A stretch of DNA of 50,971 nt, taken from contig CAYIQY010000001.1 of assembly GCA_964365665.1 (NCBI GenBank), positions 1-50,971 of the forward strand. The letters run 5' to 3'. This document shows, piece after piece, positions 403 through 44,939 of this stretch. A program made the translations under genes and the position numbers. Position 1 is the first letter of the stretch; each line of letters starts with the position of its first letter. The notes beneath the pieces are model-generated. The model was given only the letters and a program-made list of their open reading frames with translations. It did no database searches and was not told the DNA's origin. The DNA comes from an uncultured Candidatus Saccharibacteria bacterium (lineage in GTDB: Bacteria; Patescibacteriota; Saccharimonadia; Saccharimonadales; Saccharimonadaceae).

Positions 403-507
403 CCAGTCCGGGCTGCCCGCCCCCACCCAAGCTCTTCCTTATACGGAAGATGTCTCAGGAGGGGGCATTTTTCGTTTTTGCGGATGGCGTAGTGCTATAA
501 TTAAAGC

Positions 508-720
508 ATGATTAACTATCCCGAATGGTTACCCTTTGTCCTGATCCCTCTACTCATCTGGACGCTGTTTTGGAAAGGTTTGGCACTATGGCATGCCGCC
601 CGTCGCGGCAGTACGTTCTGGTTCATCATTCTGTTAGTGATCAATACAGCCGGCATACTAGAGATTATCTATTTGATTGTTACTGGCAAATTGAAAACGG
701 ACGAGCTGTTTAAAAAGTAA
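508..720 (+). CDS. small 2-TM membrane protein, DUF5652-like
   Basis: 70 aa. The WKGLALWHAARRG...INTAGILEIIYL pattern recalls the DUF5652 family. TGcTATAAT ends 6 nt before the ATG, suggesting a leaderless mRNA. Confidence 0.6.
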   Translation: MINYPEWLPFVLIPLLIWTLFWKGLALWHAARRGSTFWFIILLVINTAGILEIIYLIVTGKLKTDELFKK

Positions 721-730
721 TTAGCCGTAT

Positions 731-964
731 ATGAAGCGATATCTAAAACCCAAACACACTACCTATGTCATGGCGTTTTTTATGGCGCTGGCCATGAGCT
801 GTATTATGTCATTAGTTCTGACAATTTTTCGGCTTGGTTTTAGCTGGCATTCACTGTTGGTATGGCCCGCCAGCTGGTTATTAGGATTTATAGTCGGCTT
901 CCCGGTTGCGTTAGTTGTCGCGCCGATCGCGCTCAAACTAGCGCGTCGGGTGACGGGCGTGTAA
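731..964 (+). CDS. DUF2798-like membrane protein
   Basis: 77 aa with two hydrophobic helices. Layout is typical of DUF2798 (M..MS.IMS...W...W..GF.VGFPVA..VAP). Lies 10 nt after the previous gene. Confidence 0.55.
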   Translation: MKRYLKPKHTTYVMAFFMALAMSCIMSLVLTIFRLGFSWHSLLVWPASWLLGFIVGFPVALVVAPIALKLARRVTGV

Positions 965-996
965 ACCCTATCTTTTGATAGTTTGTCCAGTCGGTT

Positions 997-1554
997 TTAC
1001 TTCTCTGCTGGTTTCGACTGCTTCAGGAAGTTCTTGTCGAAGTAAAATAACAGTTTTGCTAGATCTTGCAGTGTGCTTACAAATATCATCCAGGACATGT
1101 CGCGAAATGAGTCGAAATACATTTGTGAAAGTTTATCTGTTTTCTCATTTCCAACATGAAATAATTCACCATTATTCCATAGATCGATCTGCTCGCGTAG
1201 AGACAAGTCCTTCCCGTCCATGTTGAGCGCTACACCGTGGGGTGCAGATTTGGTCTTTTTATCCCCGACTGCTCGTCTCCATGCATCGTAGAATTCATTT
1301 AATTTGTCGATATCTACATCGGGTTTTTCGCGCAGCTCGTTTACTAATGCGCGCATGATTAACGGAGAGCCTGGAGCGATAAAGTGACGAATGTCAAGCG
1401 CTGCTGATTTTATCGCCTCTCGCGACGGTATTGATGTAAAAGTCGTTTTTTCTCCATCCTTATTCCATGTCGATGTGTATTTTATGCTGACAAACAAACC
1501 TTCATTATTTCTGAGTTCGTCAATCTTTCGGCGAGCAAGTTCAGCTTTTTTCAT
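997..1554 (-). CDS. hypothetical protein
   Basis: 185-aa ORF with protein-like composition. TGaTAAGAT -10 box lies 6 nt upstream of the ATG. CCCTGTAA repeats lie further upstream. Confidence 0.6.
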   Translation of the reverse strand: MKKAELARRKIDELRNNEGLFVSIKYTSTWNKDGEKTTFTSIPSREAIKSAALDIRHFIAPGSPLIMRALVNELREKPDVDIDKLNEFYDAWRRAVGDKKTKSAPHGVALNMDGKDLSLREQIDLWNNGELFHVGNEKTDKLSQMYFDSFRDMSWMIFVSTLQDLAKLLFYFDKNFLKQSKPAEK

Positions 1555-1652
1555 AGCTTTATCTTATCATCGTTACAAATCTCACTGACAGAGAACGGTT
1601 ATGGGTATCAAGCTACCGGTGCGTGCGTTGTGCTTCATATATCCCGGGGTTT

Positions 1653-1692
1653 AACCCTGTAACCCCTGTAACCAACCCTGTAATCCCTGCGG
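1653..1692. repeat. CCCTGTAA direct repeats (3 copies plus a degenerate CCCTGC)
   Basis: CCCTGTAA at 1655-1662, 1664-1671 and 1676-1683, with CCCTGC at 1685-1690. Located between the terminator of the wHTH/HEPN operon and the promoter of the 997..1554 gene. Confidence 0.7.
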
Positions 1693-1697
1693 AACGA

Positions 1698-1730
1698 ACA
1701 AAAGGTCGCCGCTTCGGCGCGACCTTGTTT
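1698..1730 (-). terminator. rho-independent terminator of the wHTH/HEPN operon
   Basis: AAGGTCGC(1702-1709)/GCGACCTT(1719-1726) stem extended around a UUCG loop, followed on the minus strand by TTTTGTT. Begins 27 nt after the stop at 1757. Confidence 0.75.
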
Positions 1731-1756
1731 AATTAGAGGATAAGTGCATTTATTTG

Positions 1757-2560
1757 TCAGTATTTTAAAATTACATTTGCAACCATATCATGGCCGAAGG
1801 CAATTGCATGTGGTGATGAAATTGTAACAGATGACGGGTGAGCCGCTGTGTTACGTTCACCTAGACGCGTGTCTAACATTTTTCTGATACTGTTAGATAC
1901 CACACTAGCGGAACGGAGCAATTCAATGAGTATTGATTCTTTTAGATCCGTGAAGTCGTCAATGTGCCGAATGGTAAGTGTATTAACTCGACGATCGGGG
2001 TGTCTACCAATAGCTGCATTAAAGTCGCCTAAGTAATGTGTTAGGGTATAGTTTTCAAGATGATAGAGAGCAACGATCCATATCAAAATAATCATTGCTC
2101 GGTTTGATCCAGATTGGTAGCATCGCATCGCTTCTTCTAGGAGTACTTTCTCGTTATTGTCAGTAACTTGAGCAATTAATACTGCCAGGTCGTCGTCAAA
2201 TTGTTTAAGTTCTGGAATTTTCTCCAATTCCTTTTTAATTTGACCATGCATTTTGCCGTTAAGCTCGTAACCCCGCCCCTTTGCTTTAACAAATCGGCCC
2301 TTGCCTCCACGTATTTTTGATTCTTCGGCGAGAAAGGGAGAAATTCGCGGTGTGCTACGCTTTAAGTCTTTAGCAAAAACCCCTTCAAGCTCGCTCGTTG
2401 AAAAAGGGCTAATGCCATTTTCGGTAAGGTAGTATGCAATATATGTTATTTGCTCTTTGTCGGCAAGGTCGTAAAACTCAGGAATCCTCGCGACAAACTC
2501 AGTAACGGATGCGACACTAGCCATTTTGGTGGGTCGGTTTCTGTTTAGAAGGTAGAGCAC
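1757..2560 (-). CDS. winged-helix-like N-domain fused to HEPN-like C-domain (putative RNase effector)
   Basis: The C-terminal RNTAAH (R236-H241, nt 1838-1855) fits the HEPN Rx4H motif inside a predicted all-helical region. The N-terminal segment DKEQITYIAYYLTENGISPFSTSELEGVF is paralogous to the five upstream genes. An alternative start at 2524 would give an ATGGCTAG overlap with the upstream stop. Confidence 0.55.
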   Translation of the reverse strand: MLYLLNRNRPTKMASVASVTEFVARIPEFYDLADKEQITYIAYYLTENGISPFSTSELEGVFAKDLKRSTPRISPFLAEESKIRGGKGRFVKAKGRGYELNGKMHGQIKKELEKIPELKQFDDDLAVLIAQVTDNNEKVLLEEAMRCYQSGSNRAMIILIWIVALYHLENYTLTHYLGDFNAAIGRHPDRRVNTLTIRHIDDFTDLKESILIELLRSASVVSNSIRKMLDTRLGERNTAAHPSSVTISSPHAIAFGHDMVANVILKY

Positions 2561-3059
2561 TAAGGTACTGCAGACCCTCGTCAGTAATACGCATTTTACC
2601 AGTTAATGTTGATTGATTTGCGAACTCTTTATCGCGCAGTCTTTGATAATGTACGGACACGTGATTATTGGCTATGCCTGATCCAAGCGTGTCTGTAATC
2701 CACACGATATCACTGCCAACTAGGCCATCCATTCTTAGTTCTTTTGCGAGCGCTAATGTCCATAGCAGTTTATCTTGTGGGCTTTTAAGCTTTACATATG
2801 CGATACCATCAGTAAGTTTACTCGGTAGATCGATGGTTTTTAATGCGTCGGGGACTTCTATTTTTTTTGAACGTTTAGCTACTGCTTTCTTTTGAGTCTG
2901 CTTGATTGGAGGCACGGTAATACCTGGTGTCAGAGCAGTTCCCGACTTTAAGGGTATAGAGAGTTGTGGCTGGAATTCCGTGAAGTGCTTTTCTACAAAT
3001 TCTTCACTGCCCTCGACTTCAAAGACACCTTTCGATAAATCGATCGTAATCCTCGCCAT
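2517..3059 (-). CDS. wHTH-like paralog 5 (180 aa)
   Basis: A Pro/Lys-rich linker is followed by PQDKLLWTLALAKELRMDGLVGSDIVWITDTL ... GKMRITDEGLQYL (helix-turn-helix plus wing pattern). Overlaps the next gene. Confidence 0.5.
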   Translation of the reverse strand: MARITIDLSKGVFEVEGSEEFVEKHFTEFQPQLSIPLKSGTALTPGITVPPIKQTQKKAVAKRSKKIEVPDALKTIDLPSKLTDGIAYVKLKSPQDKLLWTLALAKELRMDGLVGSDIVWITDTLGSGIANNHVSVHYQRLRDKEFANQSTLTGKMRITDEGLQYLSALPSKQKPTHQNG

Positions 3060-3061
3060 GA

Positions 3062-3490
3062 TTATTTCGCCTCCGATTTAACTGGCGGTTCGTATACTTC
3101 ATGCCAACCATATGCAAGCTGGTATTCACCTGTTTTAGGGCTATTGACCCAGCCCTTTGTCTTGGATGTGGTCGGATACTTCCCATTAAACTTAGAACCG
3201 AGAAGGGAGCTAGCTGTCATTTTGTCCCACATCTGTCGGATCTCTGCGAGAGAGATATTCGTATCGAGGTTGCCTTTTGCTAGGTATGCAACAATGAGCA
3301 CAAACTTCTTCTCGGGTGATTTACCTTGTGCGTAGCGGCTTACGAATGCTCGTTCATTGAGGCTCCAGTCTAGTTGGCCAGTCGCAGGGCCATCAGTAGG
3401 CGGTGTTTTGGGCACATCATTTAGCAACATTACTTCGAGAGTCGCAACTCGTTTTTCTAGCGCGATATATTCATCACTTGCCATCTTCAT
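3062..3490 (-). CDS. wHTH-like paralog 4 (142 aa)
   Basis: An N-terminal short coiled helix (IALEKRVATLEVML) and a Pro-rich linker are followed by EKKFVLIVAYLAKGNLDTNISLAEIRQMW ... GEYQLAYGW. Confidence 0.5.
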   Translation of the reverse strand: MKMASDEYIALEKRVATLEVMLLNDVPKTPPTDGPATGQLDWSLNERAFVSRYAQGKSPEKKFVLIVAYLAKGNLDTNISLAEIRQMWDKMTASSLLGSKFNGKYPTTSKTKGWVNSPKTGEYQLAYGWHEVYEPPVKSEAK

Positions 3491-3860
3491 ACTCCTTTAA
3501 TACCTCTTTTAAAAAGTCTTCGCCATCGCGCGTCAGATCGTATAAGTTACTAGATTCAGGGTCACGCACCAAGCCCTCTGTAATGGCACGTTCTAGTTGC
3601 TTCGGATCACATTTCCTAGAGAATTTCGCGCTTATCCACTGTTCTTTGATTCGCGGAAAATTTATTGGTGGCTGTCCTAGAATAACTTCATTATAGCCAA
3701 TAATGAGCGCAACCTTTTTTTGTCCACTGGTGAGGAGACGGCTATGTGAAAGTTGTGACAGTGCAATTGGTTTGCGCGAAGTTACTGGTTTCGGGGTAGT
3801 ACCACTTCCGAACACGGCAGCTTCAAGCCGCAGTAAGCGTGTTTCGATATCAGTGTTCAT
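3474..3860 (-). CDS. wHTH-like paralog 3 (128 aa)
   Basis: The N-terminal helix IETRLLRLEAAVFG and a linker are followed by GQKKVALIIGYNEV...FPRIKEQW ... LYDLTRDGEDFL. Has a 17-nt overlap with the next gene. Confidence 0.5.
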   Translation of the reverse strand: MNTDIETRLLRLEAAVFGSGTTPKPVTSRKPIALSQLSHSRLLTSGQKKVALIIGYNEVILGQPPINFPRIKEQWISAKFSRKCDPKQLERAITEGLVRDPESSNLYDLTRDGEDFLKEVLKEYEDGK

Positions 3861-4276
3861 TATTTACCAAATCCTTCCTTAACCACTGCTTGACCGGTCA
3901 TTGTTAAGCACCATGTTTTCTTGCCGTCACGCTCGCCGACAGGCATTATCTGACCCTTTTGGACGCATTTTCCAATTTTATCGCTAATATTTGATGGCAC
4001 TTTTAACCGGCTATCAATGAATACCTGTCGTAATTCGTCAGAGGTAAAATCTGCTTGCGACCGGTAAACCTCTAGGTAGTTGGCGAGAACAAGTGTTCGC
4101 TGATTATCGTCAGATGGTTTTTTCTCCAGAACGTATTCTGTAATTGAAAGCGAACGTGGTGGTGCTTGAGGAATAGCGGAGGGCTGATTCATATTGTTGC
4201 TACCAGTTAGTAATTTTTCAATTGTTTCGAGCCGCACGTCGATTGCGTCAAGGCGAGTTATGATGTCGTTATCCAT
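3860..4276 (-). CDS. wHTH-like paralog 2 (138 aa)
   Basis: The N-terminal helix ITRLDAIDVRLETIEKLL and a Pro-rich linker are followed by DNQRTLVLANYLEVYRSQADFTSDELRQVF ... KKTWCLTMTGQAV. Has a 1-nt overlap with the next gene. Confidence 0.5.
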   Translation of the reverse strand: MDNDIITRLDAIDVRLETIEKLLTGSNNMNQPSAIPQAPPRSLSITEYVLEKKPSDDNQRTLVLANYLEVYRSQADFTSDELRQVFIDSRLKVPSNISDKIGKCVQKGQIMPVGERDGKKTWCLTMTGQAVVKEGFGK

Positions 4277-4278
4277 TG

Positions 4279-4680
4279 TTATTCTCCAACCTTAATCTTT
4301 TCATCCAGGCCATCTAATAGGTAGTTGGGAACGTAATACTTCTTGCCACTATCTTTTTTAATATCGCGCGTTTTTTCCAGTAGTCGTTTAAGGCTTGTTT
4401 TGGCGCTGCCCGCGGCCATAATATCTAATGCAATAATTTCTGATGGCGACATAGCCTCTGGAATATTATCGAACAGTAAGTGGCGCGCCTTTTGTGCCAC
4501 AAGCACAACAAGAATTTTCGCAGAATTTCCTAATTTATAGAATTCTGGCCGGAACGTCACCGTTCCCTCTTTTGAGAAGACGACGTATGTTTTCAGGAGA
4601 TTCGTTAGACGACCACGGTCAATTTCCTCGGTGCTCTCTGCTATGAGATTCTGTAGTGGATCGGTAGCTGATGTCCCCAT
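4279..4680 (-). CDS. wHTH-like paralog 1 (133 aa), first gene of operon
   Basis: A GGAGGA SD lies 7 nt upstream. The segment NSAKILVVLVAQKARHLL...MSPSEIIALDI ... KKYYVPNYLLDGL follows the same pattern as its neighbours. Confidence 0.5.
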   Translation of the reverse strand: MGTSATDPLQNLIAESTEEIDRGRLTNLLKTYVVFSKEGTVTFRPEFYKLGNSAKILVVLVAQKARHLLFDNIPEAMSPSEIIALDIMAAGSAKTSLKRLLEKTRDIKKDSGKKYYVPNYLLDGLDEKIKVGE

Positions 4681-4707
4681 AATATTTTCCTCCTTCTGGT
4701 TAACTTA

Positions 4708-4736
4708 AGTGTAATGATGATATCAAATACTGTCAA
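4708..4736 (-). promoter_or_regulatory. sigma70-like promoter of the six-gene wHTH/HEPN operon
   Basis: On the minus strand, TTGACA (fwd 4731-4736), a 17-nt spacer and TACACT (fwd 4708-4713), followed by a GGAGGA SD and the ATG at 4680. Confidence 0.6.
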
Positions 4737-5174
4737 GTATTTTCTGATTTTATCTGCCAAGAATTTCTTAGCGAGGTATTTTCCGCACTATGCTTATGAT
4801 TTATGCACCTAAAATCTTGACATATATGATGTATGCCAATTATTTAATATTAAAATATTAGCAAGTTTTCATTTTACAGATAAAAAAACTATATAATATC
4901 TACACATTAAAAAATGAGTATTTCATTATATTGTCAAGGATCTAGTTATTAAAAAGCTACAACTCTTTAAATATTAAGTGTAAGAACCAAAATAGAATAG
5001 ACCTATTGTTCTTCTGTCGTGTTACAGATATATAGATAAAGGAAAGATTTACTTGATTTAACTAGAATGAGCAACATGCATATCAATATCACAGAAGCTG
5101 AAAATCATATTTGAGTTGATTCGTCGATTGATATCATAAACATTTTTTAATATGCTTATACTTAACATTAATCT

Positions 5175-8018
5175 CTAATCCCCTAGTTGAGCTAGTAATT
5201 TTGATTGAAAATCTAGAGCAAAATCTTCCTGGCCGCGTGGGTCGGAGTTGTAGAATTTCAAACCTAGTGGCTTGATCTCTTTGTAGCCGTGTTTGCTGAT
5301 TTCTTGTAAATACTCTTTATAGTTGCGTTTATCACCTTCTTCGGTATCAAATACTATTTCGCTATTCTCAGCAAGGCTTATGAGAGCTTCTTCCTTCCAG
5401 GCGTCGTGTTCAAGCAAATGACCGCCCTTGGGTTCTATTAAGCACTGGTAGTACATTTCGCCATTCTTTACGTCATTGATTATAAGCATATAATCAGGGC
5501 TAAACCTGCGTCCGTCTTGCGGGCTAAACAGCCAATAGTCTAATTCGTTACGTATTAGGTAAATCTCAGAACCTTCATACTTAGCCTTTAAGTCGTCAAT
5601 CTGGCTCGCGATGTACTTCACGAACCGCTTTTCTTCACTTGTGCCGTAGTTTTCACTGTAAGCGTACCAGTCAGCTGTTTCAACATCGTACTGAAGTTCA
5701 GGGTTGTCATGGTCGCTTTGTGCTTTGGCGCGTTCATCGTTGCTCATAAACACCTTTTCGCCAGTAGCAGGGTTTTCAACCGGGAACGACATCAGGTAGA
5801 TATTCTTTTCCTTGCCAAAAACGGCAGATAATGACACTGGTCGGAATTTATTACTACCTGTAATTAGTGGCATATTTAGGTCAATCGTCTTCCGTACCTC
5901 AGGTAATATTACACCAACAAGTAATTGTAACTTCTCTGTAGGGTTCAGCTGACTTATGCTTTTACCTTCTTCGTACGTATATTTGATTTTGTATAGAGGC
6001 AGATACTTTTCAATCAGTTCATCAACTGTGCTTATACCCTTGATGTGCTCACGTAGGTTATTGAAGCGGAAGAAGTTACCTTCAGCCGATACTAATGCTT
6101 TTCGTATGACAGGCATTGGGAAGTATTCTTCGGTGACGCTTATTTCGTCTACCTTATAGCCGCCAGTAGTCTGGTTCTGCTCAAAGTCAGACAAGCCGGC
6201 AGCACGAAGGTTATATAGACCAGCCTTGATTATCTGATTGAAGGTTGTGTTAACTTCGTCGTCGGTAGTTTTGGTTCGTTTGGTGGTATGGTTCACTAGT
6301 ACGAAGCCTTTTTTGTAAGTATCGCTTTCAAGGAATTTCTGCTTCATCGTGATGGTCTTCTTTTCAATACCTTCGCTGATGATACCTTCGCCCAGCAAAT
6401 CACGTTGAAGGTTCTCTAGGAACGTACCCGTCTTCACAAAGTGGTAGACAAAGGTTTCTAGCACTCGCCCCCTGTCATACGGGTCGTTATCAAACTTCCG
6501 CTTGTACTTATCAAACTCAAGCCCACGACCACCAAAGAGGTCAATGGTTGAACTATCTTCATCTCGTTTGTATGAGCGTGGCAACTCGTATGGGTTGTAC
6601 CTTGCTCCACGACCAATCAGCTGTATGTCTTGCAACGATACTTTTTTGGCTTCAGATATGTCGAAGTGAATAATGTCGTACAGCCCAAGTACGTCCCAAC
6701 CCTCGTTCAACGCATTAACCGAAAAGATTGCACGGATTGAATTTCGTGGCGTGTCTAGTTGTGTGAGCAGTTCGGCTTTTTCTTTTTTCTGACTGTTGTA
6801 TATCAGCGTATTATCGTGGGCAAAACTAGTTCGTATCTCTGCCGTAAACGCCCTTAGTCCGTCTAGGTCGCCCTGTGATACCAGCCCAGCTTTGGGCGTT
6901 CTGAGCCACGCAAACATATCTGCCAGTATCTCGTGTTCACGGTTTTTGTTCTCGCGGCTCAGTTCGTGCAGACGGCTCAAGTCCTCTGGTCGTAGTGAGC
7001 CGATCACACTATCGAAGAACTTGCGGTCTTCTTCACTCTGAGCAATTTTAACCGACTTTATTAGCACGATAGGGCTTATAGAAACGTTCATCTCATGTTC
7101 TGCCAGCAGACGGCGATACTCGCTGAGGGCAACAGCATTCACTATCAGTAGACGTTTCTGGTCTTCTGTGTGCACCTCTTGGTTAAACAGGAATTTCACG
7201 TCCTTGCTGTACCCGTCTTTATTGAACTCTAGGAAGTCGTAGCGATGAACCAACTTGTCGGTGTACTTAGTGTGAATAGCCTCGTTTGCTAGGTCTACTG
7301 TGGCTGTGAACTCAAGGAGTATATTTTCCTCTCGTGCTTTGATAGCCGACATTACGGCTGTTTCCCAGTTCAGTATCTCCTCTTGGTCTTTTTTGTTCTT
7401 ACTACGGGTGTCTACGTTCAGCCTATGGGCTTCATCAGCTATAATAACCATGTTATTGTTCACAAAGTCCTCAGCTGTCAGTCCGTTCTCGCGGTCTTCT
7501 CTGAGGCGGTTATATAGCAGTGAGGTACTAAAGAACATGAAGTTGATACTATTGCGTCCAGCGTCAGCCACGCTACCAACAGATTTTACGTCCACATTCT
7601 GCCCGTTTATCTTGATACCCTTCGGATTGAACAGGTACTTTTCAAACTTGTAGTCCGTGAAGTTCCTTACGGCTTGGTCTTTTATCTGTATTTGGTGTAC
7701 TAGGAACAAGAAGTTGCGATAACCCTTTTCGTACAGATACAACACCACAGCAGCCATCACGAGGGTTTTACCCGTACCAGTTGCCATATTGAACAGCAGG
7801 TGTTTGGCACTAGCCCTGTCATGGTTATACAACCATATGAAGTGCTTTAGGGCCGTCTGCTGATATTCACGTAGTTGCTTGGTCGGGTGTAGGTTGTCTG
7901 TGATGTACTCTGGCACAGTGTAGGACTTCGCCCACGCTTGATAGTCAGGGTTGTTCTCTATCTTGTTGAACAGGAAGTCAGCAAGGGTTTCGCTAATTTT
8001 AGTTTTCTGTCGCGCCAT
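5175..8018 (-). CDS. res: Type III restriction enzyme, Res subunit (SF2 helicase plus C-terminal PD-(D/E)xK nuclease)
   Basis: 947 aa. Has Walker A NMATGTGKT, DEAH box IIADEAHRL, and C-terminal SPDYMLI...IEPKG. Overlaps mod by 20 nt. Confidence 0.9.
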   Translation of the reverse strand: MARQKTKISETLADFLFNKIENNPDYQAWAKSYTVPEYITDNLHPTKQLREYQQTALKHFIWLYNHDRASAKHLLFNMATGTGKTLVMAAVVLYLYEKGYRNFLFLVHQIQIKDQAVRNFTDYKFEKYLFNPKGIKINGQNVDVKSVGSVADAGRNSINFMFFSTSLLYNRLREDRENGLTAEDFVNNNMVIIADEAHRLNVDTRSKNKKDQEEILNWETAVMSAIKAREENILLEFTATVDLANEAIHTKYTDKLVHRYDFLEFNKDGYSKDVKFLFNQEVHTEDQKRLLIVNAVALSEYRRLLAEHEMNVSISPIVLIKSVKIAQSEEDRKFFDSVIGSLRPEDLSRLHELSRENKNREHEILADMFAWLRTPKAGLVSQGDLDGLRAFTAEIRTSFAHDNTLIYNSQKKEKAELLTQLDTPRNSIRAIFSVNALNEGWDVLGLYDIIHFDISEAKKVSLQDIQLIGRGARYNPYELPRSYKRDEDSSTIDLFGGRGLEFDKYKRKFDNDPYDRGRVLETFVYHFVKTGTFLENLQRDLLGEGIISEGIEKKTITMKQKFLESDTYKKGFVLVNHTTKRTKTTDDEVNTTFNQIIKAGLYNLRAAGLSDFEQNQTTGGYKVDEISVTEEYFPMPVIRKALVSAEGNFFRFNNLREHIKGISTVDELIEKYLPLYKIKYTYEEGKSISQLNPTEKLQLLVGVILPEVRKTIDLNMPLITGSNKFRPVSLSAVFGKEKNIYLMSFPVENPATGEKVFMSNDERAKAQSDHDNPELQYDVETADWYAYSENYGTSEEKRFVKYIASQIDDLKAKYEGSEIYLIRNELDYWLFSPQDGRRFSPDYMLIINDVKNGEMYYQCLIEPKGGHLLEHDAWKEEALISLAENSEIVFDTEEGDKRNYKEYLQEISKHGYKEIKPLGLKFYNSDPRGQEDFALDFQSKLLAQLGD

Positions 8019-9729
8019 AGAACTTGTCCGTTAAAGCTTTTTCATCTTCTGATACCTTGTGTCGTGCGTCGCTCATATCTGCGTAATTGAGGTACAATTG
8101 GTTTTCGTCCAGTACATCTGCCAGAGCCTCTTTGCGACCATCTAGGTCTAATTTGCGGAAGTCCTCGTCCTTTTCAAAGGCGTGACGGTCAAACCAGAAC
8201 TTCAAGAAGGCGTTGTTACGCATATCTACATACAGGTCTTCTAGCTCGCTCAGGCTTGTGGCTTCCATAATGCGTTCAACGTATTCTTGGTTGTACTTCT
8301 TGAGTTCAAAGTATACGAACGAACCGCCGCCGTTCCAGCCAACGTGGGTGCTTATACCGCCCTGTTCGCCAGCAACAACTTTTTTCAAGCGTTCCTTCGC
8401 CACTTCCTCAATATAGTCCATCTGCTCAATGCCAACCCAACGGCGATTCATCTTGTGAGCTACTGCTGAGGTAGTGCCAGAGCCAAGATGATAGTCTAGT
8501 ACAATATCACCTTCGCTAGAGCCCAGGGAGATTATCGTTTCTAGTAAGCCCTCTGGCTTTGGAAAATCAAATATCTTCTTGTTGCTAAAAAGTGCTTTTA
8601 TCTCAAGCGTTCCTCTGTCCGATAGCACTTCCTTGTTGTTCCAAATACTTGAGCGTGAACTTGTTTTTTCACGATACTTCTTGACGATTTGGTAGCCATT
8701 CTTTGCTTCCTTACCGAATATTATCTTATTGAGTTTTGGGCCAGCTGTTTCTTTGCTTTGTCGCCAGACTGTCTGTATGTCGCCAGACTTTTGCGGAATC
8801 ACCTCAATCCAGCCATGTTGCGGTTCAAGGCTCAACTCATAAAGACCATTTTCGTCTTTGTTATTTGGGTTCAAGTAAAAGGGGTAAAACAAGTTGGGAC
8901 GATTATCGACGTTGAAACTGGCGTTCCTATTGCGAAGTTCATAAAGGTCAAAACCACCCTCGCTATCGCTGTGCTTGAACTGCTTATCGTCATCAACTGC
9001 TTGGTGTAGTTCATATTCTGCAGTCTTAGAGTACATCAAGATAAACTCGTGTGTTTTTGATAAGGCTTCATAACTTCTGGTACGAGCGTCGGTTGCAACA
9101 GTTACAGTAGAGACAAAGTTTGAAGGCTGAAAAACCTCGTCCATAAGTACCTTGAGGTATGCCTGTTCATTATCATCGCAACTAACAAAAATAACGCCAT
9201 CCTCAGTCAGTAACTCACGAGCAACTTCTAAGCGGTTCTTCATGAACGCTAACCACGCCGAGTGATTGAAGCTGTCATTGTAGCGAAAACCATCGTTACC
9301 CGTATTATAAGGTGGGTCAATGTAGATAAGCTTTACCTGACCAGCCAGACGCTCTCGCAAAGTATAAAGCGCCAGTAGGTTATTGCCTTTGATGAGCAGG
9401 TTCTGGCTGAGGTTGCCTTCGCCATCAAAGAACTGAACATCATTGCTCGCAGTCAGCGACCTCTCACCCTCTTTATCAACGTAACTAAAGTCTGTCAGTA
9501 CCTTCGGTTCTTCTAGGGTGTCTATATCCTTGCTATCAACCTCTAGGTGTAGGAAGCGTTCTTCACGTCCGACATCTTCCTTGCTCATGCCAGCTTCAAG
9601 AATAGTGTCCTTGAAAGGAAAGTTTAGCACTACTCCAGTATCATTTTTGATAAAACCACCATTACTATACAGCCCAATTTTGTTGCTGTATTTTGTGTAT
9701 CGGCCTTTTCGTAATGAGTTATCAGACAT
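7999..9729 (-). CDS. mod: Type III DNA methyltransferase, Mod subunit (N6-adenine, beta class)
   Basis: 576 aa. The DPPYN motif (LIYIDPPYNTG) precedes the AdoMet motif LDYHLGSGTT. A GAGAGG SD is present upstream. Confidence 0.9.
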   Translation of the reverse strand: MSDNSLRKGRYTKYSNKIGLYSNGGFIKNDTGVVLNFPFKDTILEAGMSKEDVGREERFLHLEVDSKDIDTLEEPKVLTDFSYVDKEGERSLTASNDVQFFDGEGNLSQNLLIKGNNLLALYTLRERLAGQVKLIYIDPPYNTGNDGFRYNDSFNHSAWLAFMKNRLEVARELLTEDGVIFVSCDDNEQAYLKVLMDEVFQPSNFVSTVTVATDARTRSYEALSKTHEFILMYSKTAEYELHQAVDDDKQFKHSDSEGGFDLYELRNRNASFNVDNRPNLFYPFYLNPNNKDENGLYELSLEPQHGWIEVIPQKSGDIQTVWRQSKETAGPKLNKIIFGKEAKNGYQIVKKYREKTSSRSSIWNNKEVLSDRGTLEIKALFSNKKIFDFPKPEGLLETIISLGSSEGDIVLDYHLGSGTTSAVAHKMNRRWVGIEQMDYIEEVAKERLKKVVAGEQGGISTHVGWNGGGSFVYFELKKYNQEYVERIMEATSLSELEDLYVDMRNNAFLKFWFDRHAFEKDEDFRKLDLDGRKEALADVLDENQLYLNYADMSDARHKVSEDEKALTDKFYGATEN

Positions 9730-9810
9730 TCATCGCCTCTCGTATAATTATGAGTATTAAGCTGTATTAAATTATACCCTTTTCGCCTCTGTTTTGGTAT
9801 CCTTTGCTTC

Positions 9811-9854
9811 ATAAAAGAGAACGACCTCGTCTGTATGGTGGCAGACGAGGTCGT
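9811..9854 (-). terminator. rho-independent terminator
   Basis: 13-bp stem ACGACCTCGTCTG(9821-9833)/CAGACGAGGTCGT(9842-9854), followed on the minus strand by a T-rich run. Lies downstream of the 9878..10030 gene. Confidence 0.7.
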
Positions 9855-9877
9855 GGCGGGTGTTGTCTTGACTAGCG

Positions 9878-10030
9878 CTAGCGAGTCAGCCAGATGCCGA
9901 GCAGCCCGAAGGCGAATCCGACAAGCGCGATGCCGTCGCTCACGTTGTGCCCGAACGGATCCGTGAATGCGACGAACGTGCAGACGACTGACAGGACAAC
10001 GGTCAAGAATGCTTTTGTCCCAGTGGACAT
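9878..10030 (-). CDS. small 2-TM membrane peptide (about 50 aa), G+C-rich
   Basis: Sequence MSTGTKAFLTVVLSVVCTFVAF...ALVGFAFGLLGIWLTR. An AAGGG SD-like box lies upstream. The ORF track starts it at 10072, so the start is ambiguous (a GTG or an upstream ATG are possible). Confidence 0.5.
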   Translation of the reverse strand: MSTGTKAFLTVVLSVVCTFVAFTDPFGHNVSDGIALVGFAFGLLGIWLTR

Positions 10031-10232
10031 TTCATTCACCCTTTCCAAGGTGCGGGCTCCTGGACGATCCAAGACGCCTTGTATTATAAATTATAACATA
10101 AGTACTATTATAAGTCAATATACACCCTATTCACCCCCGTTATACCAGCGAAAATATTTTCATCAAGGCCTCATCTGATTTTATATATATTTCATCATTG
10201 CGCTTATGTAATGAAAGTTGTATGATTACCGC

Positions 10233-10799
10233 ATGACCACCGAGTCAGGTATGTGGCAAAACCACCCACTACCTCAAGAAACAAAAACATACGAAACCGC
10301 ACAAGAAGAGGATGTAAAACGCGTGCTTCAGCTGGGCAAGATCTTTGGGAAGATGCTGAAAGTGGCAACCGGTCCTCGTGGATTGCCGCAGATCAGGGGC
10401 AATAGTGATGAGTTCGATCTGGATACTATACTTGTCCCGAGCAAACATAAGGCGGGATACGCACGTACGGCACTATTCAAAGATGGTTTATGGCTAAGAG
10501 CGACAACCGGCGACGATGATGATTTGACCCACTCTCTTCATACTCTGATGATCCGTAAGCACGATATTGATAATGAAAGACCGGATACGTATCAAATAAC
10601 CAGACTAAATATGGGCGGTGATTCCGACCCTGTCGATAGATATATGGAAGGCGTGGATCAAATAGCGACTAGAGTGGACGATATGTATGAATTCGGCAAA
10701 ATAGTACACTCGTTTGAGCTAGAGGCTGCAAGCCGCTGGCCGCGGGCGCTCTCGCTTGGTGAATTGACCTTTGCCCGCATTGCATTAGACAAATCTTAG
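10233..10799 (+). CDS. hypothetical protein
   Basis: The ORF track starts at the TTG at 10218. The first ATG (10233) lies 6 nt after a TATGAT -10 box, matching the leaderless pattern seen elsewhere. No motif recognised. Confidence 0.5.
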   Translation: MTTESGMWQNHPLPQETKTYETAQEEDVKRVLQLGKIFGKMLKVATGPRGLPQIRGNSDEFDLDTILVPSKHKAGYARTALFKDGLWLRATTGDDDDLTHSLHTLMIRKHDIDNERPDTYQITRLNMGGDSDPVDRYMEGVDQIATRVDDMYEFGKIVHSFELEAASRWPRALSLGELTFARIALDKS

Positions 10800-10882
10800 A
10801 CATACGAACTCAGGGGACTTTAAGAGTTATAATAGATGCAGGCAATCCAACCGGATTGTCTCGTACGGTATAGGAGTTAACA

Positions 10883-11704
10883 ATGAAAGCACTGAGGGCA
10901 ATAGTATTTGCCATCGCGATTGTGCTCGGTATGCTGGTGCTTCCTGCGCCTGCAGCAAGTGCCCAGGTCTGTCCGCCACCTCCAGCAAGTAGTGGCAGTG
11001 TCGCCCCGGGTTCGATGCAGGCCAGTGGTGTCAATGCGGGCAATGTGATCGACACGGTGCCCCAGTACCTCGAATGGGTCGTCCAGGACGCAGACCGCGT
11101 GTGGACGGACTGGTTCAAGCGCAATGGCATGTGCGAGCCGGAGGTCGGCTACGCACTCGTCGGCACCACCATGTCATCGTGGACGTCGAACTGCAAGATG
11201 CCCGATGGCTCGACACTCTATGTGACGCCGGACTACCCCAACGCGTTTTACTGTCCGGTCGACGACACAACGGGGGCCAATGGCCATGTCTACGCCGGAA
11301 CTGTCATCTTGCCGGTGACTACCTTTTACAAGATGTGGTTTGGTGACATCTTCGGCAAGAACAGCGGTGTCATGGGCGATTTTGCCGCCGGTGCGATCGT
11401 GGCGCATGAGTTCGGCCACAGCGTGCAGGACGAAATGTCCCAGCAACTAGGCTGGGCAGCACCGAAAGGGAAAAACAAGGAGCTGATCGCCGATTGCTAT
11501 TCCGGCGTGTGGACATGGTCTATCAACCAACGAGGTCAATTGGAGCAAGGCGACCTCGACGAGATCGCTGCTGCGCTCAACTTGATGGGAGATGCCGAGA
11601 TCACAGACAATGATCATGGCACCGTCCAAGAGCGAATTACGGCGGTCAATGTCGGCATGCAGAATGGCGACCCCATGAACTGCGTCTCTGCCTACTGGCG
11701 CTAA
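10883..11704 (+). CDS. secreted neutral zinc metallopeptidase (YpfJ/Zn_peptidase-like)
   Basis: Signal peptide MKALRAIVFAIAIVLGMLVLPAPAASA. HExxH motif (AHEFGHSVQ), followed by KELIADCYSGVW as in the YpfJ family. AGGAG SD present. G+C-rich. Confidence 0.7.
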   Translation: MKALRAIVFAIAIVLGMLVLPAPAASAQVCPPPPASSGSVAPGSMQASGVNAGNVIDTVPQYLEWVVQDADRVWTDWFKRNGMCEPEVGYALVGTTMSSWTSNCKMPDGSTLYVTPDYPNAFYCPVDDTTGANGHVYAGTVILPVTTFYKMWFGDIFGKNSGVMGDFAAGAIVAHEFGHSVQDEMSQQLGWAAPKGKNKELIADCYSGVWTWSINQRGQLEQGDLDEIAAALNLMGDAEITDNDHGTVQERITAVNVGMQNGDPMNCVSAYWR

Positions 11705-11795
11705 CCCTTCTACCCCTACGCACACCTCCTGTCAGGCACCATCTATATAGATATATGGAATGTCCTGGCAGGAGGATATTTCATTTATGGACAAT

Positions 11796-12482
11796 CTAAT
11801 TAAAACCTTCGATATTAAGTTCGACGCCTGACATGACATTTGCGAATTCATTATCGGCCAACATAACACAGCTGTTGTACGCGTGACGAGCAATGCCCGC
11901 ACCGACTTTGAAATACTTTGGCTTGGTTTCGTCATCGTAAAGGTCGGCTAGTAACTCGTCGGCTAGGCGTTTGAGCCTATTCGGCGGCAAATCTTCGTCC
12001 AGCGTGTCAGGAACTGGCGGACAATCCATACCATGTTCGTATGTACGTAACCCAAGTTCAGTCACCTTTTGGGCGAATACCTGAGGGTATGAACAATTCA
12101 CTGCCAGCGTGTCCGCAACATGGACAACCATTCTGTCGTCGAAATCATCCGGCATTGATTTGTGACTGGCGGCCAGGCCAAAAATGAGGCCGTCTTGGAA
12201 TGGACCGGCATTCCAAAAAAGTTCAGCCGGTGCTATATCAACAGATATACCCATTGCAACCATTGATTGTCCGAAATGCGGGGACATGAGCACTCGTTTA
12301 TGATGGCCGATAGTAAAGCCTGCCGTCATATGTGCTTGCGACCCCTCGTACTGGTCACGTAAATGACTGATATATGCATGTGGTGACGGTGAATCCAGAT
12401 CAAGATAATCGTCCCGCATTGCACGGACGGCTTTTTCGGTATCAGCAACCGCCTTTTCGTATCTGAACGGACCTAATGGCAT
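11796..12482 (-). CDS. hypothetical protein
   Basis: 228-aa ORF with no recognised motif. Confidence 0.5.
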   Translation of the reverse strand: MPLGPFRYEKAVADTEKAVRAMRDDYLDLDSPSPHAYISHLRDQYEGSQAHMTAGFTIGHHKRVLMSPHFGQSMVAMGISVDIAPAELFWNAGPFQDGLIFGLAASHKSMPDDFDDRMVVHVADTLAVNCSYPQVFAQKVTELGLRTYEHGMDCPPVPDTLDEDLPPNRLKRLADELLADLYDDETKPKYFKVGAGIARHAYNSCVMLADNEFANVMSGVELNIEGFN

Positions 12483-12613
12483 ATGTTAGTAATAGTACAG
12501 AACATCACTATTGGCAAGCACAGGTGTTATGGCAGTTGATCAGCAATCAAATATATGATATAATAATAATTAACCTCCACCAAGGAGCACATTTCGTCTA
12601 TGGAAGGAGTGAA

Positions 12614-12883
12614 ATGCAATCTCTCGCCGAGCAGGTCGCAGACCAGCGCAGTGAAGCAGAACGATTGTTTACCGCATTTAAGGCAGCGTCGAGTTACCAG
12701 CGTGTCATTCGCAAGGATGAGGACATTGTGGTGTATACCATCGCTATTAAAGTGATTCTGAAGAACGTCGATGCCAGAGTGTCCGATGGGCAATATGCGG
12801 ATGCCCACGACATGCTGGGTGATCTGCTGGACAGCTTGTACGAAAAGTGCAAAGAGCTTCCCCTACCCTTCCTGTCCGCCTAA
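12614..12883 (+). CDS. hypothetical helical protein (89 aa)
   Basis: A GGAAGGAG SD lies before the ATG at 12614. The upstream part of the tracked ORF (from 12476) overlaps the divergent gene start and is A+T-rich. A terminator follows. Confidence 0.5.
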   Translation: MQSLAEQVADQRSEAERLFTAFKAASSYQRVIRKDEDIVVYTIAIKVILKNVDARVSDGQYADAHDMLGDLLDSLYEKCKELPLPFLSA

Positions 12884-12901
12884 TCCCGTTGCAGTGCCTA
12901 T

Positions 12902-12934
12902 GAAAAGGCCCCGGCAACGGGGCTTTTCATTTTT
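12902..12934. terminator. bidirectional rho-independent terminator
   Basis: GAAAAGGCCCC/GGGGCTTTTC stem with an A-run before it and a T-run after it. Sits between convergent genes ending at 12883 and 12933. Confidence 0.75.
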
Positions 12935-13628
12935 ATGCAGCTAACTGAAGCTGATATGCGACTCGGGCACCCATAATTCGCGCAAAAACCTGAGTGGATG
13001 CAGCGCGCTGAGGCGGGATCGTGTCGTAGATGACACCATACGTATTCGGTAGCGTATCACCCCATGTTTCATACATAGCCGCCAGATCAAATGTGACAGT
13101 TGGACTCCCTTGTTGTCTGGCCGTTTCCTCTAACTCGTGAATCTCTCCACTTGTTGTGAAGCCACCGTCAGGCAAGGCAACGACTTGGTTCAGCCCGCTA
13201 TAGGTCGAGGCTGCAAAATCACCGATCAACACTTCGTTTACCTGGCGGGTTGCAGTGACGATATCATACGCCGGAGCAACAACTGCTTTTTTGCCGATTT
13301 GCGGGTTTGCTCGGACTGATGCGGTTATAAGTTCAAGCGCGGCGAATCCTTCTTTGAATGAGCTAAATTCGTCCTCCGTATATTTGACGGGTATGTCTAA
13401 TAGTTTCAGCGCATGATGAGCCATAAGGTGTAGCTGCCTTTGGTTATCTTCGAGGAATTTTCCTTGAGCATCGACGCCAGCATCCATCGATAGCATCGTC
13501 CTGAGTAAATCCGCGTTGCCTTCCAAAAGATCGACGCTTGGAAAGTTTTCTTGAGGGATAATTGGCATCCCGTGTATTACCTTTGATGAGGGAGTAAAGG
13601 GAGCATTTCTTTCTGTATTGAACGCCAT
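12933..13628 (-). CDS. hypothetical protein
   Basis: 231-aa ORF with a GAGG SD 8 nt upstream. No motif recognised. Confidence 0.55.
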   Translation of the reverse strand: MAFNTERNAPFTPSSKVIHGMPIIPQENFPSVDLLEGNADLLRTMLSMDAGVDAQGKFLEDNQRQLHLMAHHALKLLDIPVKYTEDEFSSFKEGFAALELITASVRANPQIGKKAVVAPAYDIVTATRQVNEVLIGDFAASTYSGLNQVVALPDGGFTTSGEIHELEETARQQGSPTVTFDLAAMYETWGDTLPNTYGVIYDTIPPQRAASTQVFARIMGARVAYQLQLAA

Positions 13629-13683
13629 AGGGTAACCTCATATAAATTTATTAAGGTAACTATACACTCTAGTATAAGAAATT

Positions 13684-13730
13684 GCAAAAAAATGCAGAAA
13701 GCTCCGTGACATCAGTCGCGGAGCTTTCTG
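13684..13730 (-). terminator. rho-independent terminator
   Basis: 12-bp stem CAGAAAGCTCCG(13695-13706)/CGGAGCTTTCTG(13719-13730), followed on the minus strand by T7. Confidence 0.75.
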
Positions 13731-13747
13731 GGCTAGCGGTGTTGATG

Positions 13748-13942
13748 TCACGGAGCTTGGACGGGTGGCATCTTCGATCCCATCGGGATCAGTAGACTGA
13801 CCCACCCTGCGAAGATGATGCCAAATCCCCAGGTAGGCGATGCGTTCCACAGAATGGCTGCGCCGCCTACGTTGCCACCGATGAAGGTGGTGGCAACGGT
13901 GCCTATTAGGAGTCGCCGATGGGACTTCGTGGTTTCGGGCAT
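13748..13942 (-). CDS. small 2-TM membrane protein (64 aa), G+C-rich
   Basis: An AAGGGA SD lies 7 nt upstream and a strong terminator downstream. Hydrophobic segments LLIGTVATTFIGG and WGFGIIFAGWVSLLI. Confidence 0.55.
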   Translation of the reverse strand: MPETTKSHRRLLIGTVATTFIGGNVGGAAILWNASPTWGFGIIFAGWVSLLIPMGSKMPPVQAP

Positions 13943-14095
13943 TGCAATTCCCTTTCGAAAGGAGCGGACACTTCTGGACTGACGAGTACAGATTGTCAGA
14001 TGTATTAATTAGACCACTTATATCAAAAAATATCAATAGTAAACAACGAAACGCTTTTGGTATACTGGTATCAGTAACTAACAAAGGTGGAAATT

Positions 14096-14158
14096 ATGTC
14101 AAAAGATAAAGGCCGTAAAGAAACTAAAAAGAAGAAAAAAGAAAAAGTAGCAGCATAA
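14096..14158 (+). CDS. candidate 20-aa lysine-rich micropeptide (MSKDKGRKETKKKKKEKVAA)
   Basis: AAAGGTGG SD 5-6 nt upstream, a TATACT -10-like box at 14061-14066, and a canonical terminator immediately downstream. Too short for the ORF track. Confidence 0.35.
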   Translation: MSKDKGRKETKKKKKEKVAA

Positions 14159-14161
14159 GTA

Positions 14162-14190
14162 AAGAGCGGGTTCTGCCCCGCTCTTTTTAT
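14162..14190 (+). terminator. rho-independent terminator
   Basis: AGAGCGGG(14163-14170)/CCCGCTCT(14177-14184) stem followed by T5. Confidence 0.75.
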
Positions 14191-14224
14191 AGCTCTAAAG
14201 GCTCTGTAGGAATATAATGGTAGT

Positions 14225-14644
14225 ATGAGCACACTAAAGACACAGAAGAATGATGCGAGCGTCACTGATTTTATAGACGCCGTTTCGGGTGAGACAAAAA
14301 GGAAAGATAGTTATGCGCTGCTAGAAATGTTTACGCGGATAACTGGCGAACAACCAAAAATGTGGGGATCAAGCATTATCGGATTCGGTCAATACCACTA
14401 CAAATCTGATAGAAGCACACAAGAGGGCGATTGGCCGTTGACGGCATTTTCACCGCGCAAGCAAAACCTCACACTTTATATTATGTTGGGATTCGATGAT
14501 TACTCTGACCTGCTAGCTGACCTTGGCAAGCACAAAACGAGTGTCGGATGTCTATATATTAATAAGCTGTCGGATGTCGATCGGGGCGTATTAGAAAAGC
14601 TTATTGACAAGTCATATGAGCAAATGAAGAAGAAATATCTTTAA
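14225..14644 (+). CDS. DUF1801 (YdhG-like) domain protein
   Basis: 139 aa. N-terminal ...VTDFIDAV...KRKDSYALLEMF..ITGEQPKMWG.SIIGFG.YHY is typical of DUF1801. TATAAT lies 6 nt before the ATG. Confidence 0.65.
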   Translation: MSTLKTQKNDASVTDFIDAVSGETKRKDSYALLEMFTRITGEQPKMWGSSIIGFGQYHYKSDRSTQEGDWPLTAFSPRKQNLTLYIMLGFDDYSDLLADLGKHKTSVGCLYINKLSDVDRGVLEKLIDKSYEQMKKKYL

Positions 14645-14712
14645 GGGCGGAGGAATTCGCTACATGCTTCCTGGCTGAACATGCAGGTCTAGTAGCGCAT
14701 TTACCTCACTGC

Positions 14713-15882: not shown

Positions 15883-15957
15883 TGGCTGGGGCGGAGGGAT
15901 TCGAACCCCCGAATGTCGGCACCAAAAGCCGATGCCTTACCACTTGGCGACGCCCCA
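15883..15957 (-). tRNA. tRNA-Gln (anticodon UUG), CCA encoded
   Basis: The reverse complement is UGGGGCGUCGCCAAGUGGUAAGGCAUCGGCUUUUGGUGCCGACAUUCGGGGGUUCGAAUCCCUCCGCCCCAGCCA. It folds as a cloverleaf with a U1-A72 pair, anticodon stem UCGGC/GCCGA, loop UUUUGGU and a TPsiC loop UUCGAAU. From memory it is nearly collinear with E. coli tRNA-Gln. Confidence 0.9.
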
Positions 15958-44933: not shown

Positions 44934-44939
44934 ATAGAA

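Follow-up and report, generated by a model that had tools for sequence, protein, structure and literature searches.

HEPN ribonucleases (RNases) are recurrent executioners in bacterial immunity, and how they are kept silent and how they are triggered is a central question. DARNA, as PD-T7-3 has been renamed, is an abortive-infection tRNase of 456 aa that cuts tRNA anticodon loops; it has an N-terminal HEPN domain with the motif R117x4H122, forms a dodecamer, and its HEPN site is occluded until single-stranded DNA (ssDNA) binds the C-terminal domain (bioRxiv 10.64898/2026.02.22.705581). DUF4145 is a recognised branch of HEPN domains (PMC3710099), and in RAZR (PD-T7-4) the DUF4145 domain is the catalytic HEPN RNase and is needed for abortive infection (PMC13017515). 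In the type IX retron (Retron-Kva2), a separate winged-helix protein encloses the active site of the HEPN dimer and mitigates its toxicity (bioRxiv 10.64898/2026.07.14.738597). Here we analyse an operon of six genes, g1 to g6, in a stretch of 50,971 nt from an uncultured Candidatus Saccharibacteria bacterium (contig CAYIQY010000001.1), the whole of which is referred to as the window. The last gene, g6, is predicted to encode a winged helix fused to a HEPN domain, and together with g5, the product of which carries the same kind of winged helix, it appears to form a unit conserved across many phyla.

An earlier note on this DNA had proposed a candidate defence module of six paralogous winged-helix genes, the last one fused to HEPN, docked to a Type III restriction-modification (R-M) system. 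Labelled in transcription order, the genes all lie on the minus strand between 1757 and 4680:

4279-4680, minus strand: g1, 133 aa (open reading frame, ORF, call)
3860-4276, minus strand: g2, 138 aa (ORF call)
3474-3860, minus strand: g3, 128 aa (ORF call)
3062-3490, minus strand: g4, 142 aa (ORF call)
2517-3059, minus strand: g5, 180 aa (ORF call)
1757-2524, minus strand: g6, 255 aa from ATG 2524; 267 aa if started at GTG 2560 (1757-2560)

The six ORFs and the spacings originally given for them (2, -1, -17, 2 and -8/-44 nt) were exact. A GTG-initiated ORF of 267 aa, the length first assigned to g6, does exist, but the public gene calls and every orthologue start at ATG 2524. The protein thus most likely has 255 aa, with its gene overlapping g5 by 8 nt.

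The g5-g6 pair and the predicted HEPN domain of g6

In the AlphaFold2 (AF2) model of g6 (8 sequences; mean predicted local distance difference test score, pLDDT, 85.9), the N-domain is a winged helix composed of H22-35, a short strand, H43-53, H61-70 and the hairpin E78-81/E85-88. A linker helix follows and leads into an all-alpha C-domain with a pLDDT of ~90. The parts of g6 are located as follows:

~2255-2467, minus strand: winged helix, residues ~20-90 (AF2)
~1760-2212, minus strand: predicted HEPN domain, residues ~105-255 (AF2 and family profiles)
1838-1855, minus strand: RNTAAH, predicted to be the catalytic Rx4H motif of HEPN (R224/H229 counted on 255 aa, R236/H241 counted on 267 aa)

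The position of RNTAAH was confirmed, and the Rx4H motif was found to be kept across the family. RN[TA]AAH is invariant in all eight close homologues, RNxxAH is present in 153 of 157 family representatives, and in an alignment of 134 sequences the conservation of the motif's R, N, A, H and P reaches at least 90%. Close homologues of g6 are rare, with 8 among 5.8 billion proteins in a word-indexed search, a type of search that gave only 6-8 close relatives per query. An exhaustive profile search revealed a large family, in which at least 1,536 clusters of 50% identity are represented at E <= 1e-3 and 213 clusters at E <= 1e-30; its members are mostly ~250 aa long and were matched over their full length. 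Both g6 and every close homologue carry the precomputed Pfam assignment PF27235 "AF_1680".

The identity of the C-domain was addressed at the level of the family. The family profile (134 sequences) matched PDB entry 9wx2, 'Dandelion-hepn', with an E of 4.7e-7, and also 9wxf, 'Dandelion' (460 aa, 12 chains), the match to the Dandelion chains being limited to the N-terminal HEPN region (~residues 12-128). Dandelion is presumably the same protein as DARNA or a close homologue of it. Among the 134 family members, 83 were matched by the PADLOC model PD-T7-3 (best 1.2e-9), 33 by DUF4145 from Pfam (best 4e-5) and 13 by HEPN_RiboL-PSP, and the HepT models matched only 2-3, weakly. Family-level profiles and the motif together place the predicted C-domain in the DUF4145/DARNA-like branch of HEPN. 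The proposed fusion of a winged helix to HEPN in the last gene was thereby upheld by the AF2 winged helix, the family-level HEPN profile matches and the RNxxAH motif. As separate observations, the g6 wing (residues ~1-100, window ~2225-2524) gave a non-significant phmmer match to archaeal eS19 (E 0.44), and the g6 model gave a weak Foldseek match to the N-domain of the RNA polymerase (RNAP) delta subunit, RpoE (24% identity over 89 columns).

In the GTDB genomes, at least 120 stretches fitted a degenerate DNA pattern written for KILxx[KR]LxxRNxxAHP, and 116 of these encode true g6-family members. Among the matches listed, the hosts include Alpha-, Gamma- and Zetaproteobacteria, Bacteroidota, Acidobacteriota, Planctomycetota, Cyanobacteria, Chloroflexota, Nitrospirota, Saccharibacteria, Omnitrophota and Deinococcales, as well as one archaeal host (Nitrosopumilaceae). 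The labelled genomes with the g6 homologues closest to that of the window, again among the matches listed, are an uncultured Candidatus Saccharibacteria (L013, 39% identity) and a Candidatus Nanogingivalis (L038, 36%), both belonging to Saccharibacteria. The cassette clade most likely comes from Saccharibacteria-like bacteria. At nearly all listed GTDB loci, a same-strand gene encoding 190-230 aa precedes the g6 homologue. In a first round, a profile of the orthologues of the window g5 recognised this partner gene in 47 listed loci, with E down to 1e-23. A 40-sequence g5 profile found the adjacent upstream partner in 79 of the 99 listed GTDB loci with enough upstream sequence. The modal overlap between the two genes, among the matches listed, is 4 nt (32 loci).

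The g5 protein begins with an N-terminal motif of ~30 aa that is conserved in the family (xKLxIDLSxGxIEVEGxEEFVxxIYxDFK). A variable, low-complexity linker of ~40-60 aa follows, basic in the members read, and the C-terminal winged helix of the g5 family matches the type of the g6 N-domain (hhalign 96%, P 4.8e-9). A profile search with the g5 family retrieved no relative in Pfam, PADLOC or PDB. In 2.9 million viral contigs, only two matches were found, one of which carries the g5-g6 pair. Judging from these profile comparisons, the g5-g6 pair is an evolutionarily conserved unit, and the six-gene form is a rare, clade-restricted elaboration. The operon of the earlier note is real, but the conserved unit consists of two genes and not six. 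A third upstream protein with the same winged-helix module was found in a Porticoccus metagenome-assembled genome (MAG; L011 4479-5009, 176 aa) and in a Fimbriiglobus MAG (L012 3747-3974, 75 aa), suggesting that paralogue addition occurred more than once.

The six-gene operon, its relatives and the winged-helix module

About ten distinct multi-gene cassettes were found in all by g6- and g1-based searches, and their proteins are ~50-70% identical to those of the window. Their gene content is as follows:

Window: g1-g2-g3-g4-g5-g6
L001, L002, L004, L005 and L006: g1-g2-g3-g5-g6
L130 and L135: g1-g2-g3-g4-g6
L133 and L134: g1-g2-g3-g5-X
L038 (Candidatus Nanogingivalis MAG): g3-g4-g5-g6, with the upstream part cut off

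Orthologues of g1 (53-70% identical) head the cassette in every case, and g1 can serve as the marker of the multi-gene cassette. Orthologues of g3 are present in all cassettes, L038 included. The g4 gene is optional: the window, L130, L135 and L038 have it, and L001, L002, L004, L005, L006, L133 and L134 lack it. Overall, g1, g2 and g3 do not vary, g4 and g5 may replace or supplement one another, and the last gene can be swapped. The genes g1-g4 were seen only in these ~10 related cassettes, and a scan of Joint Genome Institute (JGI) metagenomes for g1 cassettes yielded one extra 2-kb contig only. The terminal gene X of L133 (11821-12603) and L134 (10513-11301) encodes 260-262 aa; its two copies are 72% identical and have no detectable similarity to g6. 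Read by eye and without statistical support, X has MRNRRGVGH (R-x6-H) in its N-terminal region and a winged-helix-like tail, and it may represent an effector swap with reversed domain order.

The promoter, Shine-Dalgarno sequence and terminator described for the operon were all found in place:

4708-4736, minus strand: operon promoter, -35 TTGACA at 4736-4731, 17-nt spacer, -10 TACACT at 4713-4708
4693-4688, minus strand: Shine-Dalgarno GGAGGA (sequence inspection)
~1697-1725, minus strand: GC hairpin and then TTTTGTT, resembling an intrinsic terminator, where the transcription unit ends

Promoter-like matches in the region are no commoner than in shuffles (10 vs 10.1, consensus scan); conservation of this promoter across loci is stronger evidence than the consensus match. 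In seven other cassette loci, the proteins of which are only ~55-70% identical, TTGAC is invariant and TAnACT is kept at -10. All six genes are real: each has ~55-70% identical orthologues in syntenic cassettes elsewhere. As judged by this conservation, g1-g6 make up a genuine operon that is transcribed independently; with its own conserved promoter and terminator-like hairpin it is self-contained, as had been proposed. The ORF at 997-1554 (minus strand, 185 aa), the protein of which has no Pfam, PADLOC, NCBIfam or PHROG match, was considered as a seventh member and rejected because it is not kept beside other cassettes. Between the operon terminator and the next ORF there is a tandem 9-11-nt repeat, AACCCTGTA(AC), in 3-4 copies (1653-1689).

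Alignment of the DNA upstream of g1 across seven or eight cassettes revealed a 5' region, ~270 nt long, that is kept across cassettes together with its three TGACA boxes. The following parts of it, located by cross-locus alignment, extend beyond the coordinates of the earlier note:

4737-4945, minus strand: conserved 5' regulatory region
4822-4810, minus strand: TGTCAAGATTTTA box, inverted copy of the -35 box
4798-4790, minus strand: CATAAGCAT, a conserved block together with TGTCAAGATTTTA
4882-4863, minus strand: TATCTGTAAAATGAAAACTT, conserved block
4939-4932, minus strand: CCTTGACA box, second direct copy, conserved block

The TGACA boxes pair up as inverted repeats. No RNA structure, covariation or Rfam match was found in the conserved 5' region, and it is thus presumed that its conserved blocks act as sites at the DNA level. 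An RNA antitoxin or RNA leader at this position was rejected, given the lack of covariation and of an Rfam match. The TGACA boxes are candidate operators for the winged-helix proteins.

The earlier note had read one shared module in all six proteins. BLAST and phmmer comparisons among them were too weak to decide paralogy, and family profiles were needed. The hhalign P values are those of single comparisons, 21 of which were made, so values of ~5e-4 are borderline. Besides the match of the g5 family to the g6 N-domain given above, g2 matched the g6 N-domain (96%, P 2.7e-9) and the g5 family (86%, P 5e-6), and g3 matched g4 (92%, P 7.8e-7). Matches between the two groups were weak (g2 with g3, 31%, P 5e-4; g4 with the g5 family, 33%, P 4.7e-4; g4 with the g6 N-domain, 31%, P 5e-4), and that of g1 to the g6 N-domain was non-significant (8%, P 4e-3). 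As an independent check, broad-family hidden Markov models (HMMs) were scanned against every ORF of the 51-kb window. The g6 N-domain HMM matched g2 (E 9.8e-8), the g5 HMM matched g2 at 1e-3 and g4 at 4.5e-3, and the g3 HMM matched g4 at 2e-3; no other ORF in the window was matched by these models.

By profile comparison, the winged-helix module is regarded as established for g2, g5 and g6 and as likely for g3 and g4. For g1 it is plausible from the AF2 model (7 sequences, pLDDT 70.9), in which H52-69, H79-88, H93-104, a hairpin at ~108-116 and a C-terminal helix make up a winged-helix-like layout, preceded by an N-terminal helix and a beta-hairpin. In a Foldseek search against PDB, this model had no match below E 1e-3, and its top matches, all weak, were with winged-helix proteins, namely eS19, the ArlR DNA-binding domain and forkhead. 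The shared module therefore holds within g2/g5/g6 and within g3/g4, and 'six paralogues' was an overstatement, as the links of g1 and of g3/g4 to the rest are not secure. In g2, a winged helix homologous to the g5 and g6 modules follows a conserved N-terminal amphipathic helix and a Pro-rich linker. In g3, which is a paralogue of g4, an N-terminal helix (DIExRLxxLE) and a linker come before a winged-helix-like module with YDLTRDG at its end. The N-terminal amphipathic helices that had been assigned to three of the proteins were found in g2, g3 and g4, where a linker and the established (g2) or likely (g3, g4) winged helix come after them; they are conserved in the orthologues and have a common (D/E)I..RL..LE pattern.

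Genomic context and possible function

Upstream of the cassette, the window carries a Type III R-M system, and a spacer of 490 nt, AT-rich and with a GC of about 0.3, separates res from the operon:

5175-8018, minus strand: Type III Res (PADLOC REase_III, 6.8e-96)
7999-9729, minus strand: Type III Mod (PADLOC MTase_III, 9e-156)

Type III genes were found beside the window cassette only, and the other cassettes have MmeI-type, Eco57I-like or Mrr neighbours, or none of these. The neighbour is of the MmeI family in L004, an Eco57I-like methyltransferase with RadC in L001, and an Mrr nuclease, located downstream, in L002, L005 and L006. The association with R-M is a notable feature of the cassette clade and is neither specific to Type III nor a trait of the wider family. 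Concerning conservation of the neighbourhood, which the earlier note had put forward as a check, R-M or Mrr genes do recur in several cassette contexts, but not around the two-gene pairs.

The GC content is 0.56-0.60 at 1-500 and 10750-11750 of the window vs 0.29-0.48 across 500-10500, where the R-M genes and the cassette lie, and this suggests that the low-GC stretch is acquired DNA. Pfam scans of the flanking genes revealed no integrase, no convincing flanking direct repeats were found in the window, and a megablast search of 900-10000 against plasmid and phage collections gave no match. The contig is chromosomal, as shown by tRNA-Gln(ttg) at 15883-15957 and a ribosomal L10 leader at 44808-44943 of the window. 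The L130 cassette lies a few kb from L10/L12 genes. The window also encodes a heliorhodopsin (14713-15498, minus strand; Pfam PF18761, E 1.4e-88) and, on the other side of the operon, small membrane proteins with DUF5652 (508-720) and DUF2798 (731-964).

The reading that we prefer, and to which we give an even chance, takes the operon for a mobile HEPN-RNase module that regulates itself, of the toxin-antitoxin or abortive-infection type. According to this proposal, g6 would dimerise via its HEPN domain, and the dimer would form the kind of composite RNase site known from other HEPN enzymes. The g5 protein, joined in the clade of the window by g1-g4, would bind g6, the operator boxes or both, and its contact with g6 could be made through winged helix-winged helix contacts, the g5 N-terminal motif, or both. 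Binding of the winged-helix partners would keep the RNase silent, with the operon being autoregulated at the TGACA boxes. The RNase would be set free once the partners are removed, titrated or rearranged by infection or some other stress, and would then cut tRNA, rRNA or mRNA and arrest the cell. The extra winged-helix paralogues would act as further subunits, for regulation or sensing, of a single hetero-oligomer. The type IX retron winged-helix protein offers a possible precedent, by analogy, for an antitoxin role of g5. The homology of the HEPN domain to those of the tested defence RNases DARNA and RAZR supports a role in biological conflict, and so do the modularity of the cassettes, with g4 and g5 dispensable and another terminal gene in L133 and L134, and the R-M or Mrr genes next to several separate cassettes. 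The proposal draws further on the syntenic orthologues, the winged helix-HEPN architecture, the kept RNxxAH motif, the coupling of g5 to g6, the module common to g2, g5 and g6, and the conserved promoter and TGACA boxes.

A number of observations weigh against this proposal. Taken alone, the g6 of the window is sub-threshold for the HEPN models (PD-T7-3, E 0.031). When the complete g6 model was compared by Foldseek with PDB and BFVD, nothing reached E < 1e-3, the weak matches including the HEPN protein 2hsb (prob 0.93, target template-modelling score, TMt, 0.52, E 0.58) and Csm6 6tug (E 0.55). Furthermore, no defence gene lies within 10 kb of the cassettes L130, L133, L134 and L135, which adjoin ABC transporter, kinase, tRNA synthetase and pyruvate kinase genes. 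Around the two-gene pairs, taken from 100+ GTDB genomes, the 142 closest flanking ORFs belong mostly to unrelated housekeeping families; every defence model matched there was matched by one protein only (one Type I S subunit, SoFic, AbiEii etc.). The RNase activity, toxicity, complex formation and inhibition by g5 are all inferred, and the winged-helix proteins could either inhibit or activate g6, the data being compatible with both directions of regulation.

Activation is the essence of the main alternative, in which the winged-helix array would bind foreign DNA or RNA multivalently and thereby assemble or open the HEPN dimer. The analogy is with DARNA, the HEPN of which is switched on by nucleic acid at a separate, oligomer-arrayed sensor domain. 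Winged helices are classical nucleic-acid binders, the flexible linkers and several winged-helix paralogues suit multivalent recognition, and the weak, non-significant likeness of g1 and the g6 N-domain to the eS19 winged helix and the RNAP delta N-domain points the same way. However, nucleic-acid binding by the winged-helix proteins is only presumed, and the TGACA boxes suggest that they bind their own promoter. In addition, the upstream position of the partner, the 4-nt overlap and the retron precedent suit an antitoxin at least equally well. We consider such an activating sensor unlikely.

A plain addiction module of the type II-like toxin-antitoxin kind that plays no part in phage defence, with g5 as DNA-binding antitoxin, g6 as toxin and g1-g4 as autoregulators, would fit the antitoxin-then-toxin order with translational coupling, the conserved operator-like boxes and the occurrence of the pair in very diverse phyla and in scattered contexts with mostly housekeeping neighbours. 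Owing to these housekeeping neighbours and to the four defence-free cassettes, a defence role is not established over a plain addiction module. However, five or six genes far exceed the needs of a toxin-antitoxin system, several cassettes adjoin R-M or Mrr genes, the terminal gene is exchangeable, and homologous HEPN domains work in abortive infection. In this restricted form the explanation seems rather improbable to us, although it overlaps with the proposal of a self-regulated HEPN-RNase module and the two are not mutually exclusive.

The earlier note had favoured an accessory second-line module functionally coupled to Type III mod-res. It is true that the cassette lies immediately downstream, on the same strand, of a complete Type III system, and HEPN genes are known inside R-M operons (PMC3710099). 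However, the 490-nt AT-rich spacer and a separate conserved promoter follow res, no other cassette adjoins Type III genes, and the two-gene core has no R-M linkage. The docking to Type III R-M was thus not sustained, and functional coupling appears very improbable; the adjacency probably reflects co-residence in a defence locus, with no functional dependence. Finally, a housekeeping role outside conflict, either as transcription factors or as an RNA-processing or ribosome-associated complex, would agree with the many g5-g6 pairs among metabolic genes and the weak eS19-like signals, but is highly unlikely in view of the patchy distribution (8 close homologues of the window clade in 5.8 billion proteins) in varied contexts, the strictly kept catalytic HEPN motif, the modular gene content and the absence of a conserved linkage to any housekeeping operon.

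Going beyond the self-regulated HEPN-RNase module that we prefer, the cassette could tentatively be viewed as a new multi-subunit defence complex, in which a modular, hetero-oligomeric sensor scaffold of winged-helix paralogues docks an exchangeable, winged-helix-tagged effector. The scaffold would comprise g1, g2 and g3 plus g4 and/or g5, with winged-helix heads on flexible linkers, and would be joined by the N-terminal helices or the g5 N-terminal motif. The docked effector would be g6 in most cassettes and X in L133 and L134, and the simple g5-g6 pair would be the ancestral minimal form. In any case, the g6 family is large, unstudied and spread over many phyla, with a partner that carries the same winged-helix domain, and the five- and six-gene cassettes represent a natural experiment in which a pair has been elaborated by paralogue expansion and effector exchange. 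We know of no experimental work on the defence repertoire of Saccharibacteria. The system is small and readily synthesised, so toxicity, neutralisation and phage challenge are directly testable.

Comparison with known systems

None of g1-g6 had a significant match in Pfam (local copy), PADLOC 2.0, NCBIfam or PHROGs, and no description of the g5-g6 pair or of the multi-gene cassette was found in PADLOC 2.0 or in the literature on AF_1680, PF27235 and wHTH-HEPN proteins (wHTH, winged helix-turn-helix). The proposal of an undescribed system therefore stands as far as PADLOC, NCBIfam and PHROG models are concerned, but the g6 family is already in Pfam as PF27235. That entry names a protein family of undescribed function, and the partner gene and the cassette lie outside it.

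The predicted HEPN domain of g6 belongs to the same sequence branch as that of DARNA and shares R-x4-H followed by P. However, DARNA is a single protein with an N-terminal HEPN, a Pds5-like ssDNA-sensing C-domain (~300 aa) and a homododecameric assembly, while g6 has 255 aa, an N-terminal winged helix, a C-terminal HEPN, no sensor domain and a separate winged-helix partner gene. Membership of PD-T7-3/DARNA was rejected, since domain order and size differ and two or more genes are involved. Similarly to RAZR and other DUF4145-type defence proteins (e.g. Ishtar), g6 has a HEPN fused to a small non-catalytic domain. Unlike g6, RAZR is a single gene with a zinc-finger N-domain and assembles around phage ring proteins, with neither a winged helix nor a partner.

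The best functional analogy for g5 and g6 would be the type IX retron, which also combines a HEPN with a separate small winged-helix protein. It differs in requiring a reverse transcriptase and multicopy single-stranded DNA (msDNA), and in having a HEPN without an Rx4-6H motif, and no sequence relationship was detected between its proteins and those of the window. A type IX retron was rejected for this locus, as Pfam scans of 997-1554, mod-res and 10218-15498 revealed no reverse transcriptase and 1500-5300 gave no Rfam match. HepT-MntA (HEPN-MNT, type VII toxin-antitoxin) is, like the pair, a two-gene, antitoxin-first module with a HEPN RNase toxin, and AbiE is a two-gene, antitoxin-first module in which AbiEi is a wHTH autoregulating antitoxin. 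In contrast to these, the window operon has no MNT nucleotidyltransferase and no AbiEii. HepT-MntA was rejected, given that g1-g5 contain no nucleotidyltransferase domain and that the HepT models gave the few weak matches mentioned above.

Pairing between winged helices, or binding to a shared operator, would be a solution for controlling a HEPN RNase different from those based on MNT, RNA antitoxins, cyclic oligoadenylate (cOA) or sensor domains. The HEPN effector class, the general toxin/regulator logic and the g6 family as PF27235 are already known. What appears to be undescribed, judging from PADLOC 2.0 and the literature searched, is a predicted HEPN effector with a paralogous winged-helix partner, together with its rare multi-paralogue elaboration.

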